This document shows positions 3,106-63,310 of a stretch of 64,000 nucleotides of DNA, in pieces. Within the stretch, counting starts at the first letter, position 1. Each line of letters begins with the position of its first letter. Made by a program: the position numbers and the translations under genes. The DNA is from a virus. Location of the stretch: positions 1-64,000 of the IMG/VR virus record IMGVR_UViG_3300047160_006395, one strand, 5' to 3'. The notes below the pieces were generated by a model. That model did not search any database. It saw nothing but the letters and a program-made list of their open reading frames with translations, and was not told where the DNA came from.

Positions 3106-3110
3106 TGATG

Positions 3111-3137
3111 TATGACGAGATTATGCCCGATCTTTAG
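3111..3137 (-). promoter_or_regulatory. Bipartite promoter motif CTAAAG-N15-GTCATA
   Basis: One of five copies with conserved spacing at the 5' end of accessory units. Confidence 0.7.
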
Positions 3138-3231
3138 CGCCTGGGAAGGCACCAGAAATGAGGATAGCCCGGTCCAGGGGCGATTCCTGGGCCGGGCTGA
3201 CGTAAAGGAGCTGATATGCCCGGGAAACCCT

Positions 3232-3942
3232 TTACGTCGTGCGTCGACGTGCCCGGCGCCGGCTGAAGACAGCCGCGAGGCACAGAATACCAACGCCCGT
3301 CAACGCCATCGAAGACGGTTCAGGCACTGCTGCCTGTGAGTAACTTCCATTCCCTGTCAGGGTAGCGCCAGGGGTGCTGAAGAAATTCGCCCATGTCACT
3401 GGCCCGGTGAGCCCGGTACCCGACGTGCTGGTGAGTGTGATGTTATTCTCACCACCCTTCATGAAATTGATAAAGTCGAAGTTCGGGTTGCTGTTTTCCA
3501 GCAGGCTCGTTATGGCCCCGGACATATTGAAGTAGCTCGGCAGCAGCAGTGGCGCGATGCCAGTCTGCATGTTGAAAGCCAATTCGGCCTGCATCCCGGG
3601 CGTCCCCCCGATCGTCTGATCGTAGGTGGAGGGACTCAGAGCGAGACTGTAAATTCCCGGCGACGCCGTCGGCGTCACGAACATCGTAACGGGCCCAAGC
3701 ACCTCGGTGGTCTCGGGTGGAACGAATAGCCCGTTTACGCTGTTCATCTGGCTCGACACGTTGGGAATGTCGAACTTGACGGTAGCGACACCGAAGCCGT
3801 TCACGCCCTCGTTCGTGACGTGAAACTCCCCGATGTTTCCGGAATCGGTCATCACGACCGTTCCGGCATAGGCTGCCTTCGTACTCGCGATACACGCGAT
3901 CGCGAGAAGCAGGGCAGCGCAGAAGCAAGTTCTCCGTTTCAT
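3232..3942 (-). CDS. PEP-CTERM sorting-domain surface protein
   Basis: N-terminal signal peptide (MKRRTCFCAALLLAIACIASTKAAYAG); C-terminal VPEPSS + TM helix + RRRARRR; GGAG RBS before ATG 3942. Confidence 0.9.
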   Translation of the reverse strand: MKRRTCFCAALLLAIACIASTKAAYAGTVVMTDSGNIGEFHVTNEGVNGFGVATVKFDIPNVSSQMNSVNGLFVPPETTEVLGPVTMFVTPTASPGIYSLALSPSTYDQTIGGTPGMQAELAFNMQTGIAPLLLPSYFNMSGAITSLLENSNPNFDFINFMKGGENNITLTSTSGTGLTGPVTWANFFSTPGATLTGNGSYSQAAVPEPSSMALTGVGILCLAAVFSRRRARRRTT

Positions 3943-4066: not shown

Positions 4067-4094
4067 TATGACAGGTATACAGGCGTTACTTTAG
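4067..4094 (-). promoter_or_regulatory. Bipartite promoter motif CTAAAG-N16-GTCATA
   Basis: Immediately after the stop of 4098..4415 and upstream of the PEP-CTERM gene. Confidence 0.7.
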
Positions 4095-4097
4095 CTA

Positions 4098-4415
4098 TCA
4101 GAAGGTCCGGTCGATGATCCGGTTGGCACCGTTGACGTGCACGACGCGGATCTGTTTGCAGTTCAGAAGCTGCTTGAGCCGGATCTTGTCCTGGGGCTGC
4201 ATCGTCGCCAGGGTATTCTTGAACTGCCGGTATTCGGCCAGTGTCGCCCGTTGCTTCTGCCGGCAGCGACCGCAACCCGGCCTGACCACCTTGGGCTTGA
4301 TCAATGCAGCTAGGTGGGGAAACGCCTGGCGGAATGGCGCGTTGACCACCAGCGAATCGATCGTGCTGTTCTCGATCACGATCACGTTGCGCTGGGGAAT
4401 GCCTGTAGCTATCAT
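4098..4415 (-). CDS. Small basic CxxC protein (105 aa)
   Basis: PGCGRC motif; starts 1 nt after the upstream stop. Confidence 0.7.
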   Translation of the reverse strand: MIATGIPQRNVIVIENSTIDSLVVNAPFRQAFPHLAALIKPKVVRPGCGRCRQKQRATLAEYRQFKNTLATMQPQDKIRLKQLLNCKQIRVVHVNGANRIIDRTF

Positions 4416-6900: not shown

Positions 6901-9204
6901 TCAAAGCTCTGGGCCGATGATAATTATTCCTGCCGCATCCTGTTGATCCATCAGGTTAAGGGTCTTAACCAGATTCGTTATCTCGACCAGGATTGCCTTG
7001 TAGGTCATGTCAGCGATGGTCCGGCTGCGAACGATCAGGTCGACGTGGTCAAGGCGGTACCACGGCGGCCGGGCGTTCGGGAGTGGCCAGTCTTCGGGGA
7101 AGTCCTCGAGATCGGCCGGGCTACAGACACCATCGAAAACACCGGCGAGTTCGACGGCTGTTGGCGGCTGGTCAACACTGGTCTGCATCTTGGTGGGCAC
7201 CACCCGGTAGCGGAAGATCTTCGACGGCATCATGTTCGCTTCGACAACCTGGAGAGTGAACCGGAAGCCGTCGATCACATTAGGTATGAAGTGCCGCTGG
7301 AACGTGGGTAGCAGCATGATCGTCCGGACATTGGGTATGGGCGCCGGGACCATGAACGAGTCAGTGCCGTGCGATACTGCCGTGGTAAGGACTGCAAAAC
7401 AATCGGTGGTGTGCGTCAGGCCGACGATGAATAGCTGTGCATCGATGAACCAGGCTGCTATGGATGCGGAATCAACGTCAGTCGCTGGCGCAATGGCAAA
7501 CTGGACCGTGCCTTTCGCATTCCAGGTCAAGTACACGCCGTGAGTTGCGGTTACGATGACAGATCGTGGACCATCGAGCAGGATGGGATTACCAGGATCA
7601 GTGACATCGTAGACCGACGTATTCTGTGAAGCCCAGCTATCGGCATAATAGATCGACAGAGCGTGCGTAAGTCCATCATCGAGTTGGACCGTGAGTGTCA
7701 TGGTGCCGTAAGTACGATAAAGATAGGCACCTATGTATCCGGGCATGCTCGGGATCTGAAGATACCAGGCATCGGACCCCCAACCGACCGCAGCAATATA
7801 GTCGATACCAAGCCACCCATTGGCAAAACTGACTGAGCACCCTGCCGGGATAACATCTGGTTCTCCGCCCAGCCCCAAAAGCGAATAACCCTGGCTCCCA
7901 TACTTCCCTACCCAGGTACCTCTCGTTGAATCGTCCTGCTGCACGAATACCGCGGTTGCCGCCTTGGAATCAGCAGCCGTAACATCCGCCGACTGCGGTG
8001 CATCGACGAACCAAGCCGACATTGCGCCCCAACTACCCGTCGTAGTGATAGAAAACTGGACCTGGCCACTCACGTTCCAGATCATGTAAACACCAGCTCC
8101 CCAACCCCAGGTACCGGTTGGAAGCCGAGGACCATCAAGCACGACAGGATTGGCAGGGTCAGTAACGTCGGAGACAGTAAAACTTGGGATGTAACTATTA
8201 CCGATGTAGAGTGCGACAGCGTGGGTAAGACCATCGGTAAAGTCGAATGTGATCGTTATTGGGGGACTGGGATCACCCCAACTGGGATCACCCCAATAAT
8301 ACATGGCTCCGGTAGCGCCAGGCATGCTAGGAACCTGAAGCAGATACGAGGCATCCCACGAATAGTCGGTCTTGGGCCCGAACCAGTTCGCATAACTACC
8401 GCCAGCCAAACTCACCGAGCACTTCGGTGGTAGAACGTCCGGCGCATTGCCCAGATTATTGATCGAGTAACCTTGTGCTCCGTAGGCGCCGATCCAGGTA
8501 CCCTGCGTTGAATCATCTTGCCGCGTGAACACTGCGCCTGCCTGTACGGCCAGGTGGCTGTCAGTACTATGCTTCAGAGTACCGATCGTCAGATGCGGAC
8601 CGATGAACCAGGCCATGAGCACAGCGTTCAGGTTCGTCATGTCAGCATCGACAATGCTGAACTGAACATGGCCCGTCACGTTATAGATCATGAAGACGCC
8701 GGACGCGGCGCAATCACTTACGTTCAGGCTGCTCATGTAGATGGGATTGGCAGGATCAGTGACATCATAAGCCGTTACGCTGAGGTTCCGGCCTTGCTGA
8801 CTGGGATCCACAAAATAGAGCGCAACGGAATGCGAAATGCCATCATCAAGCAAGAACGTGGCGGTTACAGGTAAGTCGCCAAAAGCAGAATTGAGCCCAC
8901 TCTGACCAGGCATACCGGGAATTGCGAGAAGACGCGGGTCAGCGTAGGTCCCAATAGGATACCAATCGTAGATCCCTTGCACCGCATCGACGCTCACTGA
9001 ACACAATGGCGGAATGACATCCGGTACCAAGTCCATGAGCGAATAGCCATGATCACCGTACTTACCGATCCAGTTGATGCCGTTCGTCCAGCTATTACGC
9101 TCCAGGAACACCGCGGTCGACGGCGCCAAGACACTATCAGTCCTGTGCGTCACAGTGCCGACGATCATCGGCAGATCTGTGCGGGCCTTTTTCTTCCTAG
9201 CCAT
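6901..9204 (-). CDS. Modular fibre-like protein: three GxWxGxYG beta domains, few HxTD repeats, C-terminal CSPADLEDFP module
   Basis: GGAGG RBS before ATG 9204; three internally repeated ~170-aa domains. Confidence 0.8.
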   Translation of the reverse strand: MARKKKARTDLPMIVGTVTHRTDSVLAPSTAVFLERNSWTNGINWIGKYGDHGYSLMDLVPDVIPPLCSVSVDAVQGIYDWYPIGTYADPRLLAIPGMPGQSGLNSAFGDLPVTATFLLDDGISHSVALYFVDPSQQGRNLSVTAYDVTDPANPIYMSSLNVSDCAASGVFMIYNVTGHVQFSIVDADMTNLNAVLMAWFIGPHLTIGTLKHSTDSHLAVQAGAVFTRQDDSTQGTWIGAYGAQGYSINNLGNAPDVLPPKCSVSLAGGSYANWFGPKTDYSWDASYLLQVPSMPGATGAMYYWGDPSWGDPSPPITITFDFTDGLTHAVALYIGNSYIPSFTVSDVTDPANPVVLDGPRLPTGTWGWGAGVYMIWNVSGQVQFSITTTGSWGAMSAWFVDAPQSADVTAADSKAATAVFVQQDDSTRGTWVGKYGSQGYSLLGLGGEPDVIPAGCSVSFANGWLGIDYIAAVGWGSDAWYLQIPSMPGYIGAYLYRTYGTMTLTVQLDDGLTHALSIYYADSWASQNTSVYDVTDPGNPILLDGPRSVIVTATHGVYLTWNAKGTVQFAIAPATDVDSASIAAWFIDAQLFIVGLTHTTDCFAVLTTAVSHGTDSFMVPAPIPNVRTIMLLPTFQRHFIPNVIDGFRFTLQVVEANMMPSKIFRYRVVPTKMQTSVDQPPTAVELAGVFDGVCSPADLEDFPEDWPLPNARPPWYRLDHVDLIVRSRTIADMTYKAILVEITNLVKTLNLMDQQDAAGIIIIGPEL

Positions 9205-9295
9205 TTCGGCGTCCTCCATGACCGTTTCATCAGCCTGCCAGCATACCGCACGGCGATGGTAGTCAGAAGCCCGGCCCGCACCAAGCCTGGCTGAG

Positions 9296-9344
9296 AGCTA
9301 AAGAAAAGGGAGATGGCCGCCCCTCGTGGGGCGACCCCAATCCC
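9296..9344 (-). terminator. Intrinsic terminator ending TTTTCTTTAGCT
   Basis: Stem GGTCGCCCC-ACGA-GGGGCGGCC directly after the stop at 9345, followed by a U-rich tail. Confidence 0.8.
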
Positions 9345-9545
9345 TCAGTGACGATGGCAGGTCTTCTGCTCTCGTTGAGGCGAGAAGAACTTCTTGCCGC
9401 ACTCAATGCACTCGCGCGGGGAATCCTTCCAGGTGCTGGGACATCCCTGTTCGTGGCAGATCACCCGGTTGATGCATAGCACGTTGCAATCATTGCAACC
9501 GCAGCTCAACTGGATCGGGTCCCCGTTCAAGTAGCGGGTCCTCAT
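9345..9545 (-). CDS. Small Cys/His-rich zinc-binding protein (66 aa)
   Basis: CGCNDC, CHEQGC, CIEC, CHRH; ATGA overlap with the upstream gene. Confidence 0.75.
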   Translation of the reverse strand: MRTRYLNGDPIQLSCGCNDCNVLCINRVICHEQGCPSTWKDSPRECIECGKKFFSPQREQKTCHRH

Positions 9546-9805
9546 GACTCAACCGGCGTTGCTAGCCGGTATTTGCCGCCCTCGAAGATGATCTTGCGTT
9601 CCATGACCAGTTTATCTAGCGCGGCCATGGTGTAGTCACGCACATCATCGGCGTGAAATTTTTTCTTGTACTTCGGATGCTCGATCATCCTGAGACTGGC
9701 ATCCGGAGCAGTCATCCCATCACCCCCGGCCTGGACGAACATTTCCAGCACGTCGACCGGAAATATTTTCAGATTGACCAGCGGGCCTTCTTCGTTCTTT
9801 GCCAC
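9542..9805 (-). CDS. Hypothetical protein (87 aa), possibly winged-helix-like
   Basis: AAGGAGAAGGAA RBS before GTG 9805; helix then LVMERKIIFEGGKYRL hairpin at the C-terminus. Confidence 0.65.
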   Translation of the reverse strand: MAKNEEGPLVNLKIFPVDVLEMFVQAGGDGMTAPDASLRMIEHPKYKKKFHADDVRDYTMAALDKLVMERKIIFEGGKYRLATPVES

Positions 9806-9827
9806 GTTCCTTCTCCTTGTTGAAGAA

Positions 9828-9998
9828 CTAAACAGGGTCACGCTTCTGCCGCCGCTTCTCGATCACTTCCGTGATCTCACGCTCGTACGTCAGCACGTGC
9901 GCCAACGCCTGGGTGAGAACGCCGAGCCGGTATCTGCCAACAGGGCAGATCTCCAACTCGGTGCGGCGGGTCCCAATCAGATCGACATTGAGGATCAC
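9828..9998 (-). CDS. Hypothetical 56-aa protein, not in ORF track (MILNVDLIGTRR...KRDPV)
   Basis: Read manually; GTG start overlaps the upstream TGA (GTGA); fills the gap between genes. Confidence 0.5.
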   Translation of the reverse strand: MILNVDLIGTRRTELEICPVGRYRLGVLTQALAHVLTYEREITEVIEKRRQKRDPV

Positions 9999-10096
9999 AG
10001 TATGCTGCGATCCATGGATACCTCGGCTTGCCAGTCCGCTTCCTTGTTCTGCTGCGTGAACCGCAGCTTCATGAATTGCGAGATCTGTTCAGCCAT
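9995..10096 (-). CDS. Hypothetical 33-aa peptide (MAEQISQF...RSIL)
   Basis: First ATG downstream of the motif at 10134-10161; coupled to the next ORF. Confidence 0.35.
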   Translation of the reverse strand: MAEQISQFMKLRFTQQNKEADWQAEVSMDRSIL

Positions 10097-10133
10097 GAGA
10101 CACCAAGAGGTAAATGAACGGCCTCTACCGTTA

Positions 10134-10161
10134 TATGACGCGGTTTCCCTGTTTCCTTTAG
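10134..10161 (-). promoter_or_regulatory. Bipartite promoter motif CTAAAG-N16-GTCATA
   Basis: The TAA in CTAAAG is the stop of 10158..10493; overlaps an inverted repeat CCTGTTTCCTTT/AAAGGAAACAGG. Confidence 0.7.
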
Positions 10162-10493
10162 CTGCCGAATCGCAGGAAAGGAAACAGGAATAACTGCACT
10201 TCACGCGTCGGCCGTGAGCGCACCACGGCTGTGTCCATCTTGTCAGGCGGCAGCGCAGCGACTAGCGCCTGCACACGGTGGTTACCATCTTCACGCTCTG
10301 CCGCACCGGGCCAGCCGTCGACGACGTCATGACCATCATCGACGACAATCTTGGTGTTTAACAGGTTAGCCCGGAACAACAGATCAACAATGTGATCCTG
10401 GACGTCGAGCTGTTTCGTCTCGATGCCCACAAGCAGTGCCATAAAAGTGTCGTACTCCTTCTTCCGTCTGGCAACACGGGTCTGTCTGGACAA
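10158..10493 (-). CDS. Hypothetical protein (~111 aa)
   Basis: AAAGGAG RBS before TTG 10493, downstream of the motif at 10554. Confidence 0.55.
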   Translation of the reverse strand: MSRQTRVARRKKEYDTFMALLVGIETKQLDVQDHIVDLLFRANLLNTKIVVDDGHDVVDGWPGAAEREDGNHRVQALVAALPPDKMDTAVVRSRPTREVQLFLFPFLRFGS

Positions 10494-10553
10494 TTGTCGG
10501 GACTCCTTTCGTTGGATGATCAAAGCGCAGCCCTACTGGGCGGCATCATGGTA

Positions 10554-10580
10554 TATGACGCTCTCCAACGCAACCTTTAG
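10554..10580 (-). promoter_or_regulatory. Bipartite promoter motif CTAAAG-N15-GTCATA
   Basis: About 10 nt downstream of the terminator at 10590-10640. Confidence 0.7.
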
Positions 10581-10589
10581 GTTTCGTAA

Positions 10590-10640
10590 TAGCTAAGAAA
10601 AAAGGGTGGGGGTTCCCCTTACGGGGCCCTTTTTTCTTAG
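10590..10640. terminator. Bidirectional-type terminator, minus-strand tail TTTTTTCTTAGCTA
   Basis: Perfect 14-bp inverted repeat CTAAGAAAAAAGGG (10593-10606) / CCCTTTTTTCTTAG (10627-10640). Confidence 0.8.
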
Positions 10641-10811
10641 TCGGGGTTCATCCCTTCGGGGGGTTATTGTTGTCGGGGGCTAGGACGTGTTTTGGTCTCA
10701 CACCCAGTCCCAGGATGTGAGAGTGATATCCCCCCAGTTATCCGCAGGTGTCGGTGGGGTGATACGCGGAAACAACGGGTTGTCAACCTTGCGGCGACCG
10801 GGCACAAGACG
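10641..10811 (-). ncRNA. Candidate structured RNA or 3' UTR
   Basis: Several hairpins (10696-10705/10713-10722 with G-U on the minus strand; a GCAA-capped stem); no credible ORF. Confidence 0.35.
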
Positions 10812-10898
10812 TCAGAAAGGTGAACCGTACAATCGAGAGGCAATATACACAATCGTAACCACCACTCGAATCACGGACAGGCAAAGTCTGACAGTCAT
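10812..10898 (-). CDS. 28-aa hydrophobic peptide MTVRLCLSVIRVVVTIVYIASRLYGSPF
   Basis: Read manually; AGGAGG RBS. Confidence 0.6.
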   Translation of the reverse strand: MTVRLCLSVIRVVVTIVYIASRLYGSPF

Positions 10899-10967
10899 CG
10901 AAACAAACCTCCTAAAAAGTTAATGCCCACCATGGGGCATACCGCAAAGAAACGAAACGGACCCTGC

Positions 10968-11057
10968 TCAACCAATGATCGCGGCAATCGCCTGAGCAAT
11001 GGCCAGTGCCAGTGCACTGGTAAACTTGAGCAGAGCAACCACGGTTGCGACGGTCAT
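10968..11057 (-). CDS. 29-aa hydrophobic peptide MTVATVVALLKFTSALALAIAQAIAAIIG
   Basis: Read manually; AGAAAGG RBS; first ORF after the motif at 11118. Confidence 0.6.
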   Translation of the reverse strand: MTVATVVALLKFTSALALAIAQAIAAIIG

Positions 11058-11117
11058 GACATAACCTTTCTTTGGTTAGAGAAGCGCGCAGTCCAACAGC
11101 AGGACGCGCCACTTATA

Positions 11118-11145
11118 AGTGACACGTTTTCCCTACAATCTTTAG
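11118..11145 (-). promoter_or_regulatory. Bipartite promoter motif variant CTAAAG-N16-GTCACT(TATAA)
   Basis: The TAA in CTAAAG is the stop of the collagen gene. Confidence 0.6.
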
Positions 11146-12038
11146 CTCCCGGGCTTGACCGCCTGATCCCAGAACGCCTGGTTCTGCTCGGCTGCTTCAG
11201 GCGTGAAGGTCGGGAACCGCTTATCCTGCCGGCCGCGGCGAACGCCCGAGATGGTCACGATAACTCGAGTCGGTACGCCAAACTTGCAGTCATCGAGATC
11301 GAGCCGGATACGCCCGTTGTCGACCATGACGCCGACGTTGCAGGACTTGTTGGGCGCCACGGCGATCGGTACGAGCGAGCCCGGCACACAGACATCAGTG
11401 AAGATCGGGTCGATCGGACACAGGATGTGGGTATCACCGTGGTTGTTGACGATATCGTAGACATCGAAGAATCGGGCTTCAGGCATCTCGGCACAGAACA
11501 GACCAACGTGCATTTGCCTCGTATCGTTGTGAACCGAGACGATGGCATACTTGTCGCCACCGTCACCGGCCGGACCCTTATCTCCCTGCGGTCCTTTGTT
11601 GCCGGTTGCGCCCTGCTTTCCATCAGCTCCTTGCGATCCGGTCTGACCTTGTGATCCGGGCAAACCTCCGGGACCCCCTGGACCCATGGGACCCGCAGGA
11701 CCCATGGGACCTATGGGGCCATGGGGACCTATAGGACCTATAGGACCGTGGGGTCCTTCAGGACCTATAGGACCCTGGGGGCCTTGGGGACCCTGGGGGC
11801 CTTGGGGACCCTGTAACCCATAAGGCCCCTGAATTCCGGCCGGGCCAGGAATGGGGATGTCGATGATCTCAGGGCACGAAAAGATCTGCTCGGGTAGGGC
11901 GGGCACCTGACAGCTACCGATGATCGGCGCGCTGCTAACTGGGGGAAGAGGGGGAACCCCCGGGCACTTCTCCGGATCGAAGATGGGATCCGGCAGCCCT
12001 TGGGCACCCTGCAACCCTTCCGGGCTTGGGTCACTCAT
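11142..12038 (-). CDS. Collagen-like fibre protein with globular C-terminal domain
   Basis: 33 uninterrupted Gly-X-Y triplets; ATG 12038 overlaps the end of the upstream gene. Confidence 0.9.
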
Positions 12039-13488
12039 CCCCCAACTCATCACCCAACTCCTCGACAACGGTCTGGACAGGCCCGCAGACGGTCATGTTA
12101 CTGCGATCGAAGTTGATGGTCAGCGCGCTGTTGTCAGTCGTCGGCGAGATCGTAACGCCTAGACCGCCGACGAACTGCATAATGCTAGCCGTTATGCCGT
12201 TGATGCTGCTGATGAGTTCGTCGCAAGTCGGACCACCGGTAAGCAGGATACTGCCGTCTGGTGGCTTCTCGTCGGGATAGATCGGCACCTCCTCACAAGG
12301 GACACCGGCGCCAGCAGCCTGGATAGACGAGAAGGTCAGCGAATTAGTCCTGTTGTCCTGCCGGATCGAGACGTTGTATCCCTCCTCGAATCGGATATCT
12401 CCCGTTATGTATTTGGCAGCAACAACATACGGCGGGTTCGTATCGCCACCGCTATCTGGGCAGCCAACTGGTGGTGTTGCATGGGTGCGATCTTGGTTGG
12501 CCAGGCTTATTGACCGAAGATAGCTCCGCCCTAAATTCTGAACCAACGCCGGCTCGATCTGAGGGCCCGTCGTGGCCGTCAGAACGCCGTCTGCGGGCAG
12601 CAGGGCGGCGAGGCTGGCCATCGGGCCGGTAACCAGGAAACCCTCCCAGAGCGGCTCCAGGGACCCCAAATAGCTATCCGCCGCCGAGCCGTAGCCAGCC
12701 AATGGCGTAGCCTCGGCGTAGTCGGTTGCGTACTCGAGTTCGTTTAGATCACGGCTGAACAGTAACGCATGCTCTACCAAACCCGGAGCATCCGAGCGGA
12801 AGTCGAACGTGAAGGTATCACCAGCACGCATGACCTCATGCAGGTATACGACGTGGTAACTGCTGTCGAATTCGGCGTCGAGGCCGACTATGCAGCCGAA
12901 GTCGATCAGGGTATCCAGGGGGATGACGAGCGGGGTCGGTAGTGTGGGCGGGGTTGTCGTGACATCCTCGACCCAGATCGCGTCGGCCAGCGTCAACGCG
13001 AGGGGACTGGTGATGGAGATGAGCAGCGTGCTGCGGGTTGGCGTAACGGTTCCTACATCCATCCAACTAACACCATCTGCATCCGTCCGTGCGCTCGGAG
13101 GAATCGTCTGGTTGACCCACGACTCCAGCAACGGATAGTAACCCTGGCCTTGTCCTTCGACTTCGGTGACCTGGAAGGGAACATTGGTTGCCAGCGCCGG
13201 AGAGGCCGGCCATGTTGCCGAGATCCGGTAGGTCCGGCCCGGCACTATGGTGAAGGTCCAGGTAACACTCCCTTCCCCCCACGGTATGCTCTGCCAGTAG
13301 CCACCGCCGCGGCCACCGGACCCAACGATCGAGATCCACACTCCCGGGGTGATGACCACGTTGGAGCCATTCCAGTTACTGGTCTGGCTGGATAGCGGCA
13401 AAGACGGCGCAGCCACGCTTGCTTCGGACCACGGTATGAGCGGGTAAGCCCGTGCTGCGTTGTCGTTATAGAATCCAGGAAGAGGCAT
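12031..13488 (-). CDS. NxxRxYP-family virion protein with inserted CBM/golvesin-like beta-sandwich
   Basis: [12 protein letters not shown] start; [21 protein letters not shown] insert; ISSINGI and Cys-containing tail. Confidence 0.65.
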
Positions 13489-13490
13489 AT

Positions 13491-14060
13491 CTACATCTCA
13501 CTGATGAATTTGTCAGCCTTGGCGCCGTTACATGGGCCACAAGTAATGCGGCAATTAGCGTATGAATGTGCGCCGCCACGACTCAGCGGAACCTCATGAT
13601 CGAGATGCATTTTGCTGTAGGCAACTGGCTTACCGCAGAGATAACACCTACCCTTGTCCCGCGCATAAACAACCTGACGTGATACGAATTCGACTGTCGC
13701 TCGTTTCTTCAGTGCTTTACGGATCCTAGCCCTATCTTTGAATGGTTCGGGGTTCTTCTTATAAACGCCTCGAACGCATCCTGTGTTACATGACTTACAG
13801 TAGGCAAATAGTCCATCCTTAGTCGTGCCGGGCGAAGCAGGGCTGAACTGTCGCCTACCACGAACTCGTCCACATTTAATGCATCGCTTTTTCGTGACGC
13901 TGATCGTTACATCAACCTGCTTACAAGCAGCTCGTCGCCTTCTGTGAAATTCGCGAGCGCACAACTTGCAGTAGGGATACCGACCATCACTCCGCGTCCG
14001 GTCTTTCCCAAACGCACTGATACGTTTGGTCCGATCACATCGTAAACAATGTTTGTCCAT
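13491..14060 (-). CDS. HNH endonuclease with N-terminal zinc ribbons
   Basis: CYLC...HLDHEVPLSRGGAHSYANCRITCGPCN; repeated CxxC; AT-richer than flanks. Confidence 0.92.
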   Translation of the reverse strand: MDKHCLRCDRTKRISAFGKDRTRSDGRYPYCKLCAREFHRRRRAACKQVDVTISVTKKRCIKCGRVRGRRQFSPASPGTTKDGLFAYCKSCNTGCVRGVYKKNPEPFKDRARIRKALKKRATVEFVSRQVVYARDKGRCYLCGKPVAYSKMHLDHEVPLSRGGAHSYANCRITCGPCNGAKADKFISEM

Positions 14061-24719: not shown

Positions 24720-26402
24720 TTAGATGTCGGGCATGTCCACATCAATGACGGAAACACCGACGTCAAGCGGATCGAGAAAGAAGGTCACGGTGCGAGGGGT
24801 GATCATGAGGCCCGGGTTATCAGGAACTATGAGTACCTCCGTACTACGAATTCGCCGGACAGTACCATCCGGTTGCCGGATGGTGCCGAACATATCGATG
24901 GCCCCGACATAGGCACCATCAGGAAGCTGTTCCTGGATCAGCTCAGAAAGCAAACTGGCGTAGAGCTGACCAGGAAAACCCAGTGAGTTGACCAGCTGGG
25001 CCGCGCTCGTGCAAATACCGTCCACAATCGATTGATCGACAACAACCGTGGCCCGCTTGTTGATGTTGAAGTTGATGGTCAAGAAACAAGGCATCGGAGC
25101 CTTGACCAGAACATCACCGGCAGGAGCCCCAAAAGAACGACCAGAGACGGTATCTTGCATGTCGCCGATCAACGGCATGGTCCGCAGCGAAACATTGTAC
25201 GGAGCCGTTGACGTACTCGGGACCAGACCAGAAACCGATGTGTCCGTATCCAGAAACTGGATCGTCGCTGCCTGATACCGACTATAAACGGCCTCGAGCG
25301 GCACGACGATATCGGGCACGAAGCCAGGGTAATTAAGGTCGAACCCGCGGATATCGCTGGTGACGTCGTAACCGGCATCATCTTGCGGTCCGGTTGTCAG
25401 CCCGATCCGGTCGACCATGTAAAACCCGGCGATGGGGGTGAAGTTCGCATCGGTATCAGACGAAGCAATCGAGAGCTGCCAGATTCCACCTGCCGGGGTT
25501 GCCTGCATGAAGGTGGCTGTCTTTGTAAGGGTGATCGACAGCGGCAAGTCCTGGGTACGGGCATAGAGATCCACCCGGCCGAACATGGCAATCGGCATGA
25601 TGGTGTGCTTGTCGCGAAGCATCTCGGCGTCACCAGCACCGATGATCGAAGTCTGGAGCATGCGCGCGTACGCAGGCATGGCCCGCAAAGAAGCATCGAT
25701 CGTGACCCGGTTCGACCATGCTTGGGCCGCCATGCCAGCCTGAAGACGGGCGAGCATATCAGCGTTGGTCTCGGCGTCGAAGCCGCCGCTGAAGTCGCTC
25801 TCCGCGTATGCGCGGGCGAAGTACGGGATCGGATCGAGCGTGATCAAGCTGGCACCGCGTCGGAGCATACCAGCACTGCCCGGATCGACAGCGGTCACCG
25901 GGATCGAAAAGGAATAAGTGCCATCGCCTACAGGCTGGAGCACGCGGTCTGTGGAATTGGTAACCGTTTGCTCGTTGATCCTGGCCGCATAGGCTTGGCC
26001 GGGCGTGAACAGGATGCCGTTGGCCGAGAACTGATTCGACGCCGGGATAACAACCGGCGTCAAGGTCTGGAGAATGATGGTGATCGTACCCGAAGCAGGC
26101 GTGCCGGTCTGACGATCGATACGGAAGTTGGACAAGGCCGCATCAACGACAGTCTGGTCGCTCAGTTGCGGGTCTGTGGAGATCGCCAGCAAGCTGGAGG
26201 ATTCCCGCAAAAGCTCCATGCGAGTTCGTTGTTCAGCGCCCAGAACAGCCGTCAGATACAAGACGATATCATGAATTACCCCGCGCTTGGTCTCCAGCTC
26301 AGGGAATTGTTCGGCCATCCGCTCGGATAGCTGTGCCTGCACCTGAGCCACAAGATCATGGTCAAGCGTCGACAGGTCAAGTACGTCAAGAATGTCGGCC
26401 AT
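24720..26402 (-). CDS. Baseplate J-like (gp6-like) wedge protein
   Basis: R.TGTPASGTITI, A.DPGSAG, GGFDAETNADMLAR, GRVDLY motifs; follows the gp25-like gene. Confidence 0.85.
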   Translation of the reverse strand: MADILDVLDLSTLDHDLVAQVQAQLSERMAEQFPELETKRGVIHDIVLYLTAVLGAEQRTRMELLRESSSLLAISTDPQLSDQTVVDAALSNFRIDRQTGTPASGTITIILQTLTPVVIPASNQFSANGILFTPGQAYAARINEQTVTNSTDRVLQPVGDGTYSFSIPVTAVDPGSAGMLRRGASLITLDPIPYFARAYAESDFSGGFDAETNADMLARLQAGMAAQAWSNRVTIDASLRAMPAYARMLQTSIIGAGDAEMLRDKHTIMPIAMFGRVDLYARTQDLPLSITLTKTATFMQATPAGGIWQLSIASSDTDANFTPIAGFYMVDRIGLTTGPQDDAGYDVTSDIRGFDLNYPGFVPDIVVPLEAVYSRYQAATIQFLDTDTSVSGLVPSTSTAPYNVSLRTMPLIGDMQDTVSGRSFGAPAGDVLVKAPMPCFLTINFNINKRATVVVDQSIVDGICTSAAQLVNSLGFPGQLYASLLSELIQEQLPDGAYVGAIDMFGTIRQPDGTVRRIRSTEVLIVPDNPGLMITPRTVTFFLDPLDVGVSVIDVDMPDI

Positions 26403-27380: not shown

Positions 27381-28175
27381 TCACAGTAACGCGGAATCCT
27401 CAAACTCATCGAGCATCTGCTGGATCCTCGCCGCCCGTTGGCTGACAGCCCCTGGCGAGAGTTTCAGTCGGCGGGCGATCTGCGAAGCTGGCAGCTTGGT
27501 CGCCCCGTTCAGGCCCATGCCGTACTCTAAGATCACCTGGTCGTGTGGGTCCAGGTCATGGTACAGAAATTCAGCTCTGAGTTTCGTCCGATCCGGTCCT
27601 TCGACGGCCGGCTCGAACCCGCCGCCCGCACCACCTTCCTCGTCCTCATCGGCAAGCAAAGCCAACCGACCTTCGGACACCGGTGACCGGTACCCGCGGA
27701 TGTGAGCAATACGCCGCCGTGATAGCCCGGTATGGTCAGCCAGCTCCAGATCTGAAGGATCACGACCGAGGCGGTCACTCAGTTCTGCCTCAGCTTCATT
27801 CAGATGATGCTGATCGAGGGCCACAGCTTCGGGAACATGGATCACCTGGTTCTGCTGGGCGCCGTAGCGTCGCAGACCCTGAAGATGAGCCATCAGATGG
27901 GTCTTGAGGCTGGCCTTGGATGGGTCGTACCTGCCGGCGGCTTGCAATGCAATCCGGCGGGCACGGCTCCGCATCATTGGATTGGCGCTCCGACCGCCAT
28001 AGACATTCAATCCTTCCTGGATCACCGGATCGACAGCCTTGAGGAACGCATCGGAGCTGGTCGGGTTAGGATTGGCTGACCAGGCGTGAAAGGCGGGAGC
28101 GAACTTGGGTTCAAGCCGGTTGGTTGGCGCAGAAAAGCTGTCATCGAGCTTGGCCGGCGTGAAAGTGCTGGGCAT
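27381..28175 (-). CDS. Phage RNA polymerase sigma factor, group 3 (FliA/WhiG/SigF-like)
   Basis: Region 2 YDPSKASLKTH, region 3 LSDRLGRDPSDLELADHTGLS, region 4 HTH SQIARRLKLSPGAVSQR; GGAGG RBS. Confidence 0.85.
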   Translation of the reverse strand: MPSTFTPAKLDDSFSAPTNRLEPKFAPAFHAWSANPNPTSSDAFLKAVDPVIQEGLNVYGGRSANPMMRSRARRIALQAAGRYDPSKASLKTHLMAHLQGLRRYGAQQNQVIHVPEAVALDQHHLNEAEAELSDRLGRDPSDLELADHTGLSRRRIAHIRGYRSPVSEGRLALLADEDEEGGAGGGFEPAVEGPDRTKLRAEFLYHDLDPHDQVILEYGMGLNGATKLPASQIARRLKLSPGAVSQRAARIQQMLDEFEDSALL

Positions 28176-40231: not shown

Positions 40232-43000
40232 TCAGACAACGAGATGGACCTCGAGATTGTTCAACGGGTAAGGTAGCGTGACATCGATCACGCAGACCAC
40301 CCGATCCGGGAGGATAGCGTGAGGTTGGAGACTGACGACTGTCGCAGCAATCAGCTGAGGACCAAGCCGGGCAATGGTCCCATTGGACTTCAGGAAGTTG
40401 ATGCACGAATCGATCTCAACGCCCAGAATCATGAGGCCCGAAGGCGTGACGTTCATCAGACCGATAAAAGGAGCCAGCCGCAGGGCGAACAGATAAGAGA
40501 TCGAGTCGAGGTTGGTCGTGACCATCTCTTCCGATGAATTCACGTCCGTGTTGTCGGTAGTCAAGGCATGACGAGTGTAAACCGTCCCATCCGGCGACTG
40601 AGTCACAATCCATGTGCCAGCTCCAGCCATGACGTTGAGCTGGTTACCGCCGAAAAAGTTGGTGGTACGGGTCAAGTCATCGAATCCCGCGATCTGAAGA
40701 TTGGTCATGCCTTGGTGGGGCAAGATGCCAGATCGCAAACCGGCCAGGGCACAAGCAAGGTAATATCCTTCCATGAGTACCCCGCCGCTGCCGACCGTGT
40801 CCGGCCAGACCATCTTCACGCGGCGGCTGCCAAAGCTGCCGGCTTGCTCGGCAAGGTCCGCGGCAATCTCATCCTTGCTCAGGTATCGCCAGACTTCGAT
40901 CTTCTGTGGCGTCCCTATTTTTGCTGGCGGTCCAGACATCAGCAGGAGTGAGTCTTCCGTGAGCACTTGATCGATGATGTACTCATCATAGATCTCATTG
41001 CCGCTACTATCGATGCCGTAGTCGGTCCGTACCACATCGCCAGGCTGCACCCTATTGGCGATGAAGTTGGAATTGCTAGGGGTAGGAACGGTGAGCAAGG
41101 TGTATTCAATACCCACCGCCGCGTTGTTCACGTCGATAGTAGCCATGACGACCTGGCCGTTCGACGAGTTAGCCTGGTCGACGACCGCGGCCTGACTCTT
41201 GGCCTGGATGGAGCCCCAAAGCGCGCGCCAACGCGCTTGTTCTGGCGACGATTCATCATTGACGTGTGCCGCGTACAGATCTTGAACCTGGCGGTCGAAG
41301 GTCAGCGGCACGAGGTTGTACACGTCAACGCGACCGACCAACAGATCCAGAACCGCAACCCAGGAATTAAGATCATCAGGGTTAGCAACAGCAGTGAACA
41401 TCACAAACGAGCCGTTGCTGTTGGAGAGCGCGTTGTAGACCCCCCACTTGAGCGGGTTATCAGGAGTGAGCGGCCCGCTGATAGCTTCGTCGATGGTGCC
41501 AACATCGTAGATCCCGTTGACGCTGTTAGCCAGGTCAGAGATCCAGGCACGGTACTCGACATAGATATCGCCAGAAGTGACCGTTAGCGGGCGAGGCTGG
41601 CCGCCGGCGGTGAATTCCTCGTCGTAAGCAATGATCCCGCCATTGACGATGATCTGGGTTCCGTTCTGCGTCCAGTTGGTGATGCCGTCAGAGATCTGAT
41701 CGACCATAATGTTACGCTGCACAGACAGCGTCAGATCAAGATTGGGCGGCGTCGCCTGCCCCACCAACTCCGATGGCAGATTGTGACCCAGAACAAGGAC
41801 AGCCATGCGACCTTCCTGTACGCCGGTAACGATAACGTAGAACTTATCACCCTTGCGAATACCGGTCGGGGCAGGGCTACCGCTGAACTGGATCAGCAGC
41901 CCATCCGTACCGACAGGGTAGGTGTTGGCAAGATTGTTGACTATCTGAGGCGGACTACTGTCAGTGCCGAGCGTAGTAATGGCACTGAACATGGGGTAGT
42001 CAGGACCAGCAAGATGCCCGCCCTGGGTGAATTCGATGATGTAAGTCGTCGACTGAGCACCACGGAAGCCGCCAACAACGGCACTAGAGGTAGCCGAGAT
42101 TGCCGAGTAGGCAGACTGGACGGCTATCGTGAAAACTTGGCCCGAGATCAGATCGCCCGTTCCAGTGAATGTCAATGACAACCCACGGTTGCCTACCGTA
42201 AAAGCAGTACCTGACGCGGCACAAGGAACCCCCATGGCGCTGTCATGACCACTGGCCGTGGTGGCATTCACTGTGGCGGTCGCCAGCGTGCCTCCGCTCG
42301 ACGAGTCTGCAATCGTGATCGTGTAGGTATCGTCCAACACACCATCAGCCAGCGCGTCATAATTGGTGATGCTGGCTGTCAGAGTCGGGCCGGTATAGCC
42401 AGTAGGCGGAGTAACGATCGCACTACCCGTCGGATTGGTCTTTCCGTTAGCGCCATCCGAACTCGCTGATCCAACGGACGCACCAGTTGGATCAGCCTCA
42501 ACGGCCATGACGTAGGTATCGAGTTCGTAGTTCGTACCGCCAGAAGCACCGCGGATATGCACCAGGTCGCCGGGCTGCACATCGCGATCGAAAAGCAGCG
42601 GATAGCGAGGATAAGCGCCGTTGAGTGCGAAACCGCAAGTCGGAAGATTCGTATCGTCGCAACGAATCTGATTGCTGCTGTTGACGACCGGTGTGACCTT
42701 GCTGGTACCGGTGCCGGCAGCGGTCAGATCCACATAGTACTCAAGATCGGCATTGTCGATGTAGATCTTGGTGTAATTGAAGTCGATGATGCCGCCTGGA
42801 GGCCGCTGCGGCCACTCACTAACAATGGTGTTGAGCGGATCATAGGCACCCAGAAAAGCCAGGAGCTTCTCATTAGGCTCCGCGTAGCGAAGCAGGAAGG
42901 CGTGTGGCCCGGAGATGTGTGCGTTCAGCGTGCCCGTCAGGGCAGCCGGGGCAATGTTGAACTCCTGGAACACCAGGACTTGCGGTACGATGTAAGCCAT
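40232..43000 (-). CDS. Contractile tail sheath protein (922 aa)
   Basis: YIVPQVLVFQE N-terminus; CALAGL, RHALTTD, EEMVTTNLDSI, PYPLNNLEVHL C-terminus. Confidence 0.88.
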   Translation of the reverse strand: MAYIVPQVLVFQEFNIAPAALTGTLNAHISGPHAFLLRYAEPNEKLLAFLGAYDPLNTIVSEWPQRPPGGIIDFNYTKIYIDNADLEYYVDLTAAGTGTSKVTPVVNSSNQIRCDDTNLPTCGFALNGAYPRYPLLFDRDVQPGDLVHIRGASGGTNYELDTYVMAVEADPTGASVGSASSDGANGKTNPTGSAIVTPPTGYTGPTLTASITNYDALADGVLDDTYTITIADSSSGGTLATATVNATTASGHDSAMGVPCAASGTAFTVGNRGLSLTFTGTGDLISGQVFTIAVQSAYSAISATSSAVVGGFRGAQSTTYIIEFTQGGHLAGPDYPMFSAITTLGTDSSPPQIVNNLANTYPVGTDGLLIQFSGSPAPTGIRKGDKFYVIVTGVQEGRMAVLVLGHNLPSELVGQATPPNLDLTLSVQRNIMVDQISDGITNWTQNGTQIIVNGGIIAYDEEFTAGGQPRPLTVTSGDIYVEYRAWISDLANSVNGIYDVGTIDEAISGPLTPDNPLKWGVYNALSNSNGSFVMFTAVANPDDLNSWVAVLDLLVGRVDVYNLVPLTFDRQVQDLYAAHVNDESSPEQARWRALWGSIQAKSQAAVVDQANSSNGQVVMATIDVNNAAVGIEYTLLTVPTPSNSNFIANRVQPGDVVRTDYGIDSSGNEIYDEYIIDQVLTEDSLLLMSGPPAKIGTPQKIEVWRYLSKDEIAADLAEQAGSFGSRRVKMVWPDTVGSGGVLMEGYYLACALAGLRSGILPHQGMTNLQIAGFDDLTRTTNFFGGNQLNVMAGAGTWIVTQSPDGTVYTRHALTTDNTDVNSSEEMVTTNLDSISYLFALRLAPFIGLMNVTPSGLMILGVEIDSCINFLKSNGTIARLGPQLIAATVVSLQPHAILPDRVVCVIDVTLPYPLNNLEVHLVV

Positions 43001-63250: not shown

Positions 63251-63285
63251 TAGCTAAAAGAAAGAGCCGGATGTAGGCAGCTCTT
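63251..63285 (-). terminator. Intrinsic terminator ending TCTTTTAGCTA
   Basis: Stem AAGAGCTG/CGGCTCTT then a U-rich tail, after the HNH gene. Confidence 0.7.
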
Positions 63286-63291
63286 CATGCT

Positions 63292-63310
63292 GATACGCAG
63301 CGTAACGGGG
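63292..63310. repeat. Palindrome copy GATACGCAGCGTAACGGGG
   Basis: Immediately after the HNH stop codon; only the central base differs from the other copies. Confidence 0.6.

Follow-up and report, generated by a model that had tools for sequence, protein, structure and literature searches.

The stretch of DNA analysed here (the window) comprises the first 64 kb of a single virus contig of 103,397 bp from IMG/VR (record IMGVR_UViG_3300047160_006395; G+C content ~57%), with nearly all of its genes on the minus strand. Two tail-fibre genes of this phage are separated, at 9296-11147, by a block of three promoter-open reading frame (ORF)-terminator units arranged in tandem on the minus strand and carrying ORFan cargo, which we refer to as units A, B and C (Table 1). 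Unit B is without a terminator of its own and reads into unit C. The block is enclosed by a perfect 10-nt inverted repeat (9295-9304 / 11139-11148) and unit C by one of 12 nt (9296-9307 / 10152-10163). An inverted repeat also flanks the -35 box of promoter P3. A lone 10-nt inverted repeat inside 2 kb is close to chance level, and it is the recurrence and placement of these sequences that give them significance. A built-in scan of 9000-11400 recovered the terminators and no sigma-70-like promoter site. Coordinates above 64,000, or marked "genome", lie beyond the window on the 103-kb contig.

The contig carries myovirus-type genes for the tail sheath (40232-43000), the baseplate wedge (24720-26402), the major head protein (genome 64131-65075) and the collagen-like tail fibre (11142-12050), and it has a multisubunit RNA polymerase of the cellular type, split over two genes, a fused beta-beta'N (genome 83102-88498; Pfam Rpb2_6, 1.9e-48, plus Rpb1_2) and beta'C (genome 77175-79160; Rpb1_5). 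More than 2,300 homologues of beta'C were found in metagenomes, many of them on contigs of 180-246 kb, which places the phage in a large family of uncultured jumbo phages. It probably falls within or near the multisubunit-RNA-polymerase-encoding Caudovirales of PMC7481178, where promoters and sigma factors are not treated. Completeness of the contig was estimated at ~50% (CheckV). Relatives were found through an alignment of beta'C, the two closest being G1 (G001, 141 kb, beta'C 80% identical) and G2 (G002, 226 kb, 100% complete, beta'C 75% identical); the loci L017, L026 and L094 and 1.05 Mb of distant relatives were also compared. A metagenome scan yielded the G1 phage again and distant relatives, and nothing else. 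The DNA of the block had no match among GenBank phages, single-protein searches of IMG/VR with the flanking fibre proteins and the proteins C3 and B found no relatives, and the contig as a whole had no matches in Rfam or tRNA scans.

Table 1. Predicted features of the block at 9296-11147 and of related sites in the window.
Feature	Position	Strand	Description
Collagen-like tail-fibre gene	11142..12050	-	Pfam Collagen, E 3.5e-12, and PHROG tail-fibre families; C-terminus KPGS*; stop TAA within the P1 -35 box
Predicted promoter P1	11112..11147	-	AGCTAAAG-N16-GTCACTTATAAG, variant -10; box 11147-11140; upstream half orthologous to the single promoter of G1
Unit A, ORF A1	10968..11057	-	29-aa hydrophobic peptide; gaaagg upstream, resembling a ribosome-binding site
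Unit A, ORF A2	10812..10898	-	28-aa hydrophobic peptide; AGGAGG ribosome-binding site; small hairpin and T-run before it, 10923-10940
Predicted bidirectional intrinsic terminator ending unit A	10590..10650	.	14-nt perfect inverted repeat; -25.0 kcal/mol, z -4.4; tails TTTTTTCTTAGCTAT (-), TTTTTTCTTAGTC (+)
Predicted promoter P2	10551..10582	-	CCTAAAG-N15-GTCATATACC; 8 nt past the terminator tail of unit A
Unit B gene	10158..10523	-	ORFan, 94-121 aa by choice of start; ends RFGS*; stop TAA within the P3 -35 box
Predicted promoter P3	10131..10163	-	AGCTAAAG-N16-GTCATATAA; part 3' of the -10 orthologous to the post-collagen promoter of G1 and G2
Unit C	9345..10096	-	C1 9995-10096 (33 aa); C2 9828-9998 (56 aa); C3 9542-9805 (87 aa); C4 9345-9545 (66 aa, Cys-rich)
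Predicted intrinsic terminator ending unit C	9296..9346	-	-29.1 kcal/mol, z -3.8; tail TTTTCTTTAGCT, exact reverse complement of AGCTAAAG; hairpin common to the G1 and G2 terminators
Repeat-rich fibre-like gene downstream of the block	6901..9219	-	C-terminal domain kept in relatives
Predicted promoter of the same class, directly after a stop codon	4064..4096	-	TGATAGCTAAAG-N16-GTCATACA; predicted to drive the PEP-CTERM gene; orthologues in G1 and G2
Predicted promoter of the same class	3108..3139	-	GCGCTAAAG-N15-GTCATACA; followed by ~400 nt without an ORF, then strain-specific cargo
Predicted terminator ending the free-standing HNH-like endonuclease cassette	63252..63300	-	tail TTTCTTTTAGCTAT, AGCTAT-tailed; gene 63311-64033
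Divergent sigma-70-family factor, candidate promoter reader	27381..28175	-	G1 85%, G2 77% identical; found family-wide

Alignment of the CTAAAG sites gave a bipartite motif, (A)GCTAAAG-N15/16-GTCATAYA, of which AGCTAAAG appears to be the extended -35 element of a phage-specific promoter. Seven exact copies of the full motif occur in 103 kb (none in 30 composition-matched simulations), and with two variant copies at 11145 and 81590 the density is ~9 per 103 kb. In the window AGCTAAAG is found at 9296-9303 (+), 10156-10163 (-), 11140-11147 (-) and 4089-4096 (-), four occurrences where 0.75 are expected and a number that none of 100 shuffles reached, and CTAAAG is found six times (11.7 expected), each time inside one of these elements. 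Every copy of the motif on the contig is either intergenic or overlaps a stop codon, and faces a downstream ORF or an ORF-free transcribed region. The copies are confined to three islands, at 2.7-4.1, 9.3-11.1 and 79.2-83.1 kb, the last of which lies between the polymerase genes.

The same motif is present in the relatives, with seven copies in G1 and four in G2. Orthologous promoters follow the collagen gene, gene 4098-4415 and the PEP-CTERM gene on the 3' side in all three phages, with both half-sites kept and the spacers diverged. Among 20 sites from the three genomes, CTAAA is near-invariant (one CTGAA), as is GTCATA (three variant sites). Of the two bases preceding CTAAA, the first is A in 10/20 and the second G in 14/20 sites, and AGCTAAAG may therefore be taken as the consensus of the extended -35 element; the base after CTAAA is G in 13/20 sites, and T is favoured 2 nt past the hexamer (14/20). 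In the 1.05 Mb of distant relatives we found three copies where ~0.4 would be expected, one of them directly 3' of the orthologue of gene 4098-4415, a distribution that favours a factor that would travel with the phage. The sigma factor encoded at 27381-28175 most likely reads these promoters.

Three further observations concern the promoters and their surroundings. In those with a 15-nt spacer (window 3108-3139; genome 79634 and 82687), the spacer TTCGGGCnnTTTCyn is kept across paralogues and genomes, which may reflect extra protein contacts or sequence exchange among promoter copies. Short tandem repeats lie just upstream of cassette promoters (GTAGCAAAC / GCGACAC at genome ~81010-80975, minus strand; GCAAGCGAC at L004:8780-8850); they are iteron-like and could be a binding array for a regulator. 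The product of gene 3232-3942 (-) carries a sorting signal of the PEP-CTERM type (TIGR02595 and PF07589, both above cut-off) and is kept in G1 (56% identity) and G2 (51%).

An earlier reading of the window, made from its letters alone (the sequence-only reading), had claimed that units open with a CTAAAG box and close with a hairpin followed by TTAGCT. Early hairpin finders were noisy in this GC-rich genome, and curated sites with fold z-scores were used instead. Folding relative to shuffles supported this architecture at 9296-9350 (z -3.8) and 10590-10650 (z -4.4), less so at 63252-63300 (z -1.7), and did not bear it out for TTTAGCT at 1185 and 1258, where no convincing hairpin precedes the motif (z +0.5 and -0.2). 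Terminator folds with z from -3.8 to -6.0 were obtained. The count of such tails that the sequence-only reading called for revealed a strong enrichment after terminator hairpins. TTTAGCT occurs seven times in the 64-kb window (2.4 expected); TTAGCT has 23 occurrences in the genome, counting both strands, and the six of these with a T/C tract of 8 nt or more before them all lie between genes and follow hairpins, at 9301, 10596, 63257, 79180 and 79648 (-) and at 83095 (+), five of them reading AGCTAT. Two more terminators have tails that are one base off (TTAGCC at ~81090; TTAGTC at 10630, plus strand), and the sole strong terminator without the tail is at 76771. TTTAGCTAT occurs five times in this genome and 0-1 times in shuffles. 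The hairpin sequences themselves are mutually unrelated, and the tail is constant. In two cases a promoter follows the terminator within 6-8 nt (10596/10580 and 79654/79634).

G2 has two copies of this tail, as does the more distant relative L026, whose two copies may be duplicates; L094 carries a close variant. That the tail is roughly the reverse complement of the -35 box, as had been proposed, is exactly true of TTTTCTTTAGCT at 9296, and fails in G1, where the orthologous tails read AACTAT, ACCTAT or GGCTAT. In the distant relatives TTTAGCTAT shows no overall enrichment (11 copies, 4-13 in shuffles). The stable core of the tail, T-tract-A-N-CTAT, lies mostly outside the part complementary to the -35 box, and the exact reverse-complement relation therefore appears to be particular to this genome. 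Two other uses of these sequences were considered and rejected: T-run+NNCTAT as a general core-operon promoter, since it is rare and nearly always directly follows a hairpin, and a restriction-linked avoidance of AGCT across the genome, for which observed/expected was 1.04.

The proposal that promoter boxes are wedged at stop codons was corroborated. The collagen-like protein and the unit B protein both end in Gly-Ser (KPGS* and RFGS*), and in each case the stop codon, at 11142 and 10158 respectively, is the TAA inside AGCTAAAG; at 4098, the stop codon TGA is directly followed by TAGCTAAAG. In G1 the hexamer at the -35 position behind the collagen gene reads CTGAAG and supplies a TGA stop, and in G2 the stop lies 10 nt upstream. 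These overlaps therefore reflect genome compaction, with promoters packed against the upstream gene, and are not in themselves recombination scars.

Comparison with G1 and G2 revealed turnover of the cargo within conserved boundaries. G1 and G2 lack homologues of B, of C1-C3, of the genes in the 79-83 kb island and of those 3' of the promoter at 3137, whereas the flanking genes are 50-85% identical to theirs; in unit C, C4 alone has a homologue in G1 (44.8% identity), and the unit B protein had no family match and no relative. The bounding promoter and terminator are kept in the relatives and the cargo between them is different. Units A and B together form a 984-bp segment (11147-10164) that is missing in G1 and G2, where a single promoter follows the collagen gene, and this segment is flanked here by a 32-nt direct repeat of P1 and P3 sequence (75% identical, spacing 984). 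The single promoter of G1 corresponds to P1 upstream of the -35 box and to P3 downstream of the -10 box, with CGGTAGAGGCCGT common to it and P3. On the terminator side, G1 has an extra 161-aa gene flanked by two copies of one terminator hairpin, and the single terminator here is chimeric, its upstream side matching the first G1 copy and its tail side the second. The crossovers of these two mapped indels thus appear to lie inside whole duplicated promoter or terminator copies, and synteny breakpoints in the relatives fall in the boxes. The claim that the units are self-contained promoter-gene-terminator cassettes is supported.

Two further sequences in or near unit C were noted. The Atlas model of C3 (9542-9805, minus strand) resembles winged-helix domains of the kind seen in linker histones and at the N-terminus of Mrr-type restriction enzymes, a lead towards DNA binding only. 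Beyond the cassette terminator, TATGCTG(G/A)CAGGC is kept ~35 nt before the start of the fibre gene both in the window (~9225-9245, minus strand) and in G1 (L047:6770-6800), and may be another promoter class.

A second locus with variable content is the island between the polymerase genes. In G2 and L017 the homologue of gene 81592-81846 directly adjoins beta'C (an empty site), whereas three units (2.4 kb) occupy this place here and ~2.5 kb of partly different cargo occupies it in G1. The start of the array is separated from a stop codon by 1-2 nt, and its end falls ~20 nt short of the next start codon; one of its cassettes is reversed and is bounded by the same sequences. Also in this island is an ORF-free stretch of ~440-500 nt (genome 81590-81090, minus strand; L003), with a variant promoter, CTAAAC-N15-GTCAAATATAAG, 2 nt past a stop codon and a terminator tail TTTTTTTAGCC. 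It had no match in Rfam; in G1 the corresponding position holds one or two ORF-free units, which showed no similarity to it by blastn.

A further insertion is the unit at 63252-64110, of the same architecture, which carries an HNH-like endonuclease gene and a related promoter, CTTGAC-N16-GTCATATAC. It sits after the major head gene and is absent from that place in G1 and G2. Separately, a free-standing HNH ORF (PF01844, E 4e-11) at 13491-14060 (-) lies between genes that are adjacent in G1 and G2, an insertion of the homing-endonuclease type; it is without promoter or terminator boxes of its own. Residues ~372-715 of beta-beta'N (genome 83102-88498; L003:7102-12498) are missing in relatives and give a weak LAGLIDADG match, suggesting an intein-like insert, and similar inserts are found elsewhere in the polymerases of relatives (near residue 1118 in L005; three in L006).

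The motifs and their statistics, the conservation of orthologous sites, the turnover of cargo and the chimeric junctions are all observed directly in these genomes. From them we infer promoter activity, terminator activity and a mechanism of recombination, and consider it likely that the block is a hyperplastic accessory locus, in which recombination between repeated promoter/terminator modules brings about the gain, loss and replacement of units, as in the PeSL (promoter-early stem-loop) cassettes discussed below, without a dedicated recombinase. Each unit would start at a phage-specific promoter, (A)GCTAAAG-N15/16-GTCATAYA, and units A and C would end at intrinsic terminators in which the T-tract is followed by AGCT (AGCTAT after unit A). 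The promoters would be packed against the preceding gene, and therefore the TAA in CTAAAG could serve as the stop codon of that gene. Homologous or short-homology recombination between duplicated promoters or terminators would move the units, some of which may also carry a homing endonuclease.

Alternatively, the cassettes could be site-specific mobile elements of an integron or transposon kind, with AGCTAAAG / CTTTAGCT as terminal inverted repeats or AGCT-centred recombination sites, and this is close to the suggestion of the sequence-only reading that they insert at TAGCTA-like sites. The perfect 10-nt inverted repeat around the block, the 12-nt repeat around unit C and the reversed cassette of the polymerase island would suit such elements. 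However, when the relatives were aligned in search of empty sites joining at AGCT, those sites contained no AGCT (in G1, GGTCTGAAG), and the G2 empty site between the RNA polymerase genes has neither promoter box nor terminator tail. No target-site duplication was seen outside the repeats, the block flanks AAGCCCGG and TCAGCCAG not being duplicated (no search for a DDE transposase was made). A recombinase, which the sequence-only reading suggested looking for elsewhere on the contig, did not come to light: searches with positive controls found no tyrosine or serine recombinase (integrase/resolvase), including the IntI-type PF00589, in any of the three genomes, of which the contig is ~50% and G2 100% complete. 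Whereas integron cassettes lack promoters of their own, every cassette here carries one; a -35 element and a terminator tail already account for the boxes; and the inverted match between the two ends has been lost in G1. Together with crossovers that fall within whole duplicated modules, these observations lead us to regard site-specific insertion as very improbable.

The tail itself allows more than one interpretation. The T-tract followed by AGCTAT may be a sequence-specific signal for termination, insulation or restart, read by the phage polymerase, sigma or another factor, an idea compatible with module recombination and in competition only with the tail as a passive by-product of module duplication. 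It would account for six strong terminators with unrelated hairpins sharing TTAGCT, for the excess of TTTAGCTAT over shuffles in this genome and for the tails of G2, L026 and L094, whereas the loss of AGCT from the orthologous terminators of G1 and the shuffle-level count in distant relatives speak against it. To our knowledge, no known termination mechanism requires an AGCTAT-like box. That the same sigma reads both box and tail, as had been envisaged, is weakened, as the sigma of G1 is 85% identical and yet its tails no longer complement the -35 box; overall, we view a factor-read tail as possible but somewhat doubtful. The complementarity of box and tail would be best explained by two independent signals, the A-run of the -35 element and the T-run of the terminator, which coincide and have been sharpened here by homogenisation of the modules, and we hold the chances of this to be evenly balanced. 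The AAA/TTT part of the match is trivial and only the AG and CT positions are not; the two positions preceding CTAAA are variable in G1 and G2, and so is the one after the T-tract; and CTAT, the best-conserved part of the tail, is outside the complementary stretch. On the other side stand the preference for A and G before CTAAA across the three genomes and the AGCT that follows six strong terminators here, well beyond what chance would give. A stronger version, in which the hairpin and TTTTCTTT(T)AGCTAT form a transcription boundary signal for the phage polymerase/sigma and, together with AGCTAAAG, make inverted AGCT-centred boundary repeats that allow cassettes to be exchanged or flipped either way, seems unlikely to us.

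The promoters might also be read by host FliA (sigma-28) on the host RNA polymerase instead of by the phage sigma. The consensus of sigma-28 (FliA/WhiG) promoters is TAAAGTTT-N11-GCCGATAA (PMC2859248); the -35 half of the phage motif, CTAAAG(t)T, matches TAAAGTTT, and the distance of 18-19 nt from TAAAG to ATA gives the same geometry. However, the -10 half, GTCATAYA, is without the GCCGATAA core and shares ATA alone with it. The motif is also kept in relatives with strongly diverged core proteins and G+C contents of 42-57%, which fits a phage-borne factor, and the phage has a conserved sigma; we consider a host reader improbable. Some of the evidence weighs against our preferred explanation, with its phage-specific promoters and module recombination. 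Besides the mismatch of the -10 half to sigma-28 promoters, the phage sigma scores far under the cut-off for both the FliA_WhiG and RpoD models, and its matches to PDB profiles are weak (SigA 1.6e-11, FliA 6e-8), so that it is very divergent, is not classed as group 1 or 3 and is not assignable to the FliA family. The direction of the indels, gain or loss, is drawn by parsimony from two close relatives. Finally, plain module recombination does not account for a constant AGCTAT tail amid differing hairpins.

Among known systems, the closest parallel is with the PeSL cassettes of T4-type phages (Arbiol et al., 2010, PMC2839356; Comeau et al., 2014, PMC4122927). In such cassettes a composite motif of promoter and stem-loop starts from the upstream stop codon, flanks ORFans in hyperplastic regions and mediates indels by recombination; it also occurs inside virion modules and between split polymerase cistrons (PMC2839356, PMC4122927). 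The units described here likewise combine a promoter with a stem-loop/terminator in a repeated motif beginning at the upstream gene's stop codon (nine promoters), lie in variable regions beside ORFans with cargo lacking homologues in G1/G2 and family matches, are sited within virion modules and between split polymerase genes, and have breakpoints inside the motifs (the chimeric promoter and terminator, the 32-nt repeat around 984 bp and the empty or filled island). They differ in belonging to a lineage of jumbo-type phages with their own multisubunit RNA polymerase and sigma, in a promoter that is sigma-28-like rather than of the host sigma-70 consensus used in the T4 type (no sigma-70-like site in the scanned region), in number (~9 copies per 103 kb compared with ~50 per T4-type genome) and in their conserved AGCTAT terminator tail. 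Mini-circles and demonstrated promoter and terminator activity belong to PeSLs; the units here are predicted from sequence.

Morons are mainly found in temperate phages and expressed from the prophage; they were reportedly described in lambdoid and other phages by Juhala and colleagues and by Hendrix and colleagues, both in 2000. Like them, the units here are autonomous promoter-gene-terminator units between genes that are adjacent in a relative, as seen for units A+B compared with G1/G2, for the array between gene 81592-81846 and beta'C compared with G2/L017, and for the HNH unit compared with G1/G2. Unlike them, they share one promoter class and stand in tandem at fixed hot spots, and no integrase was found here. 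Integron cassettes resemble them as small accessory genes in tandem at one locus whose content varies among relatives, but no IntI, attC or common upstream Pc was found here, each unit has its own promoter and terminator, and the hairpins precede T-tracts as in intrinsic terminators, unlike attC hairpins. In comparison with transposons and miniature inverted-repeat transposable elements, the 10-nt inverted repeat is present and the target-site duplication is not. Homing endonucleases have a counterpart in the unit at 63252-64110, inserted relative to G1 and G2, whereas the units of block 9296-11147 encode no endonuclease.

These findings would extend the principle of PeSLs and morons, in which repeated regulatory modules serve as recombination points for the turnover of accessory genes, to widespread uncultured jumbo phages equipped with a sigma factor and an RNA polymerase of the cellular type. 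They also provide a first candidate promoter for this family, with a sigma-28-like -35 half, and a candidate terminator signature, both of which may be useful for annotation. The genes and RNAs under these putative promoters would form a small regulon of ORFans, a PEP-CTERM surface protein, small membrane peptides and ORF-free RNAs, which may be a place to seek genes for interaction with the host.

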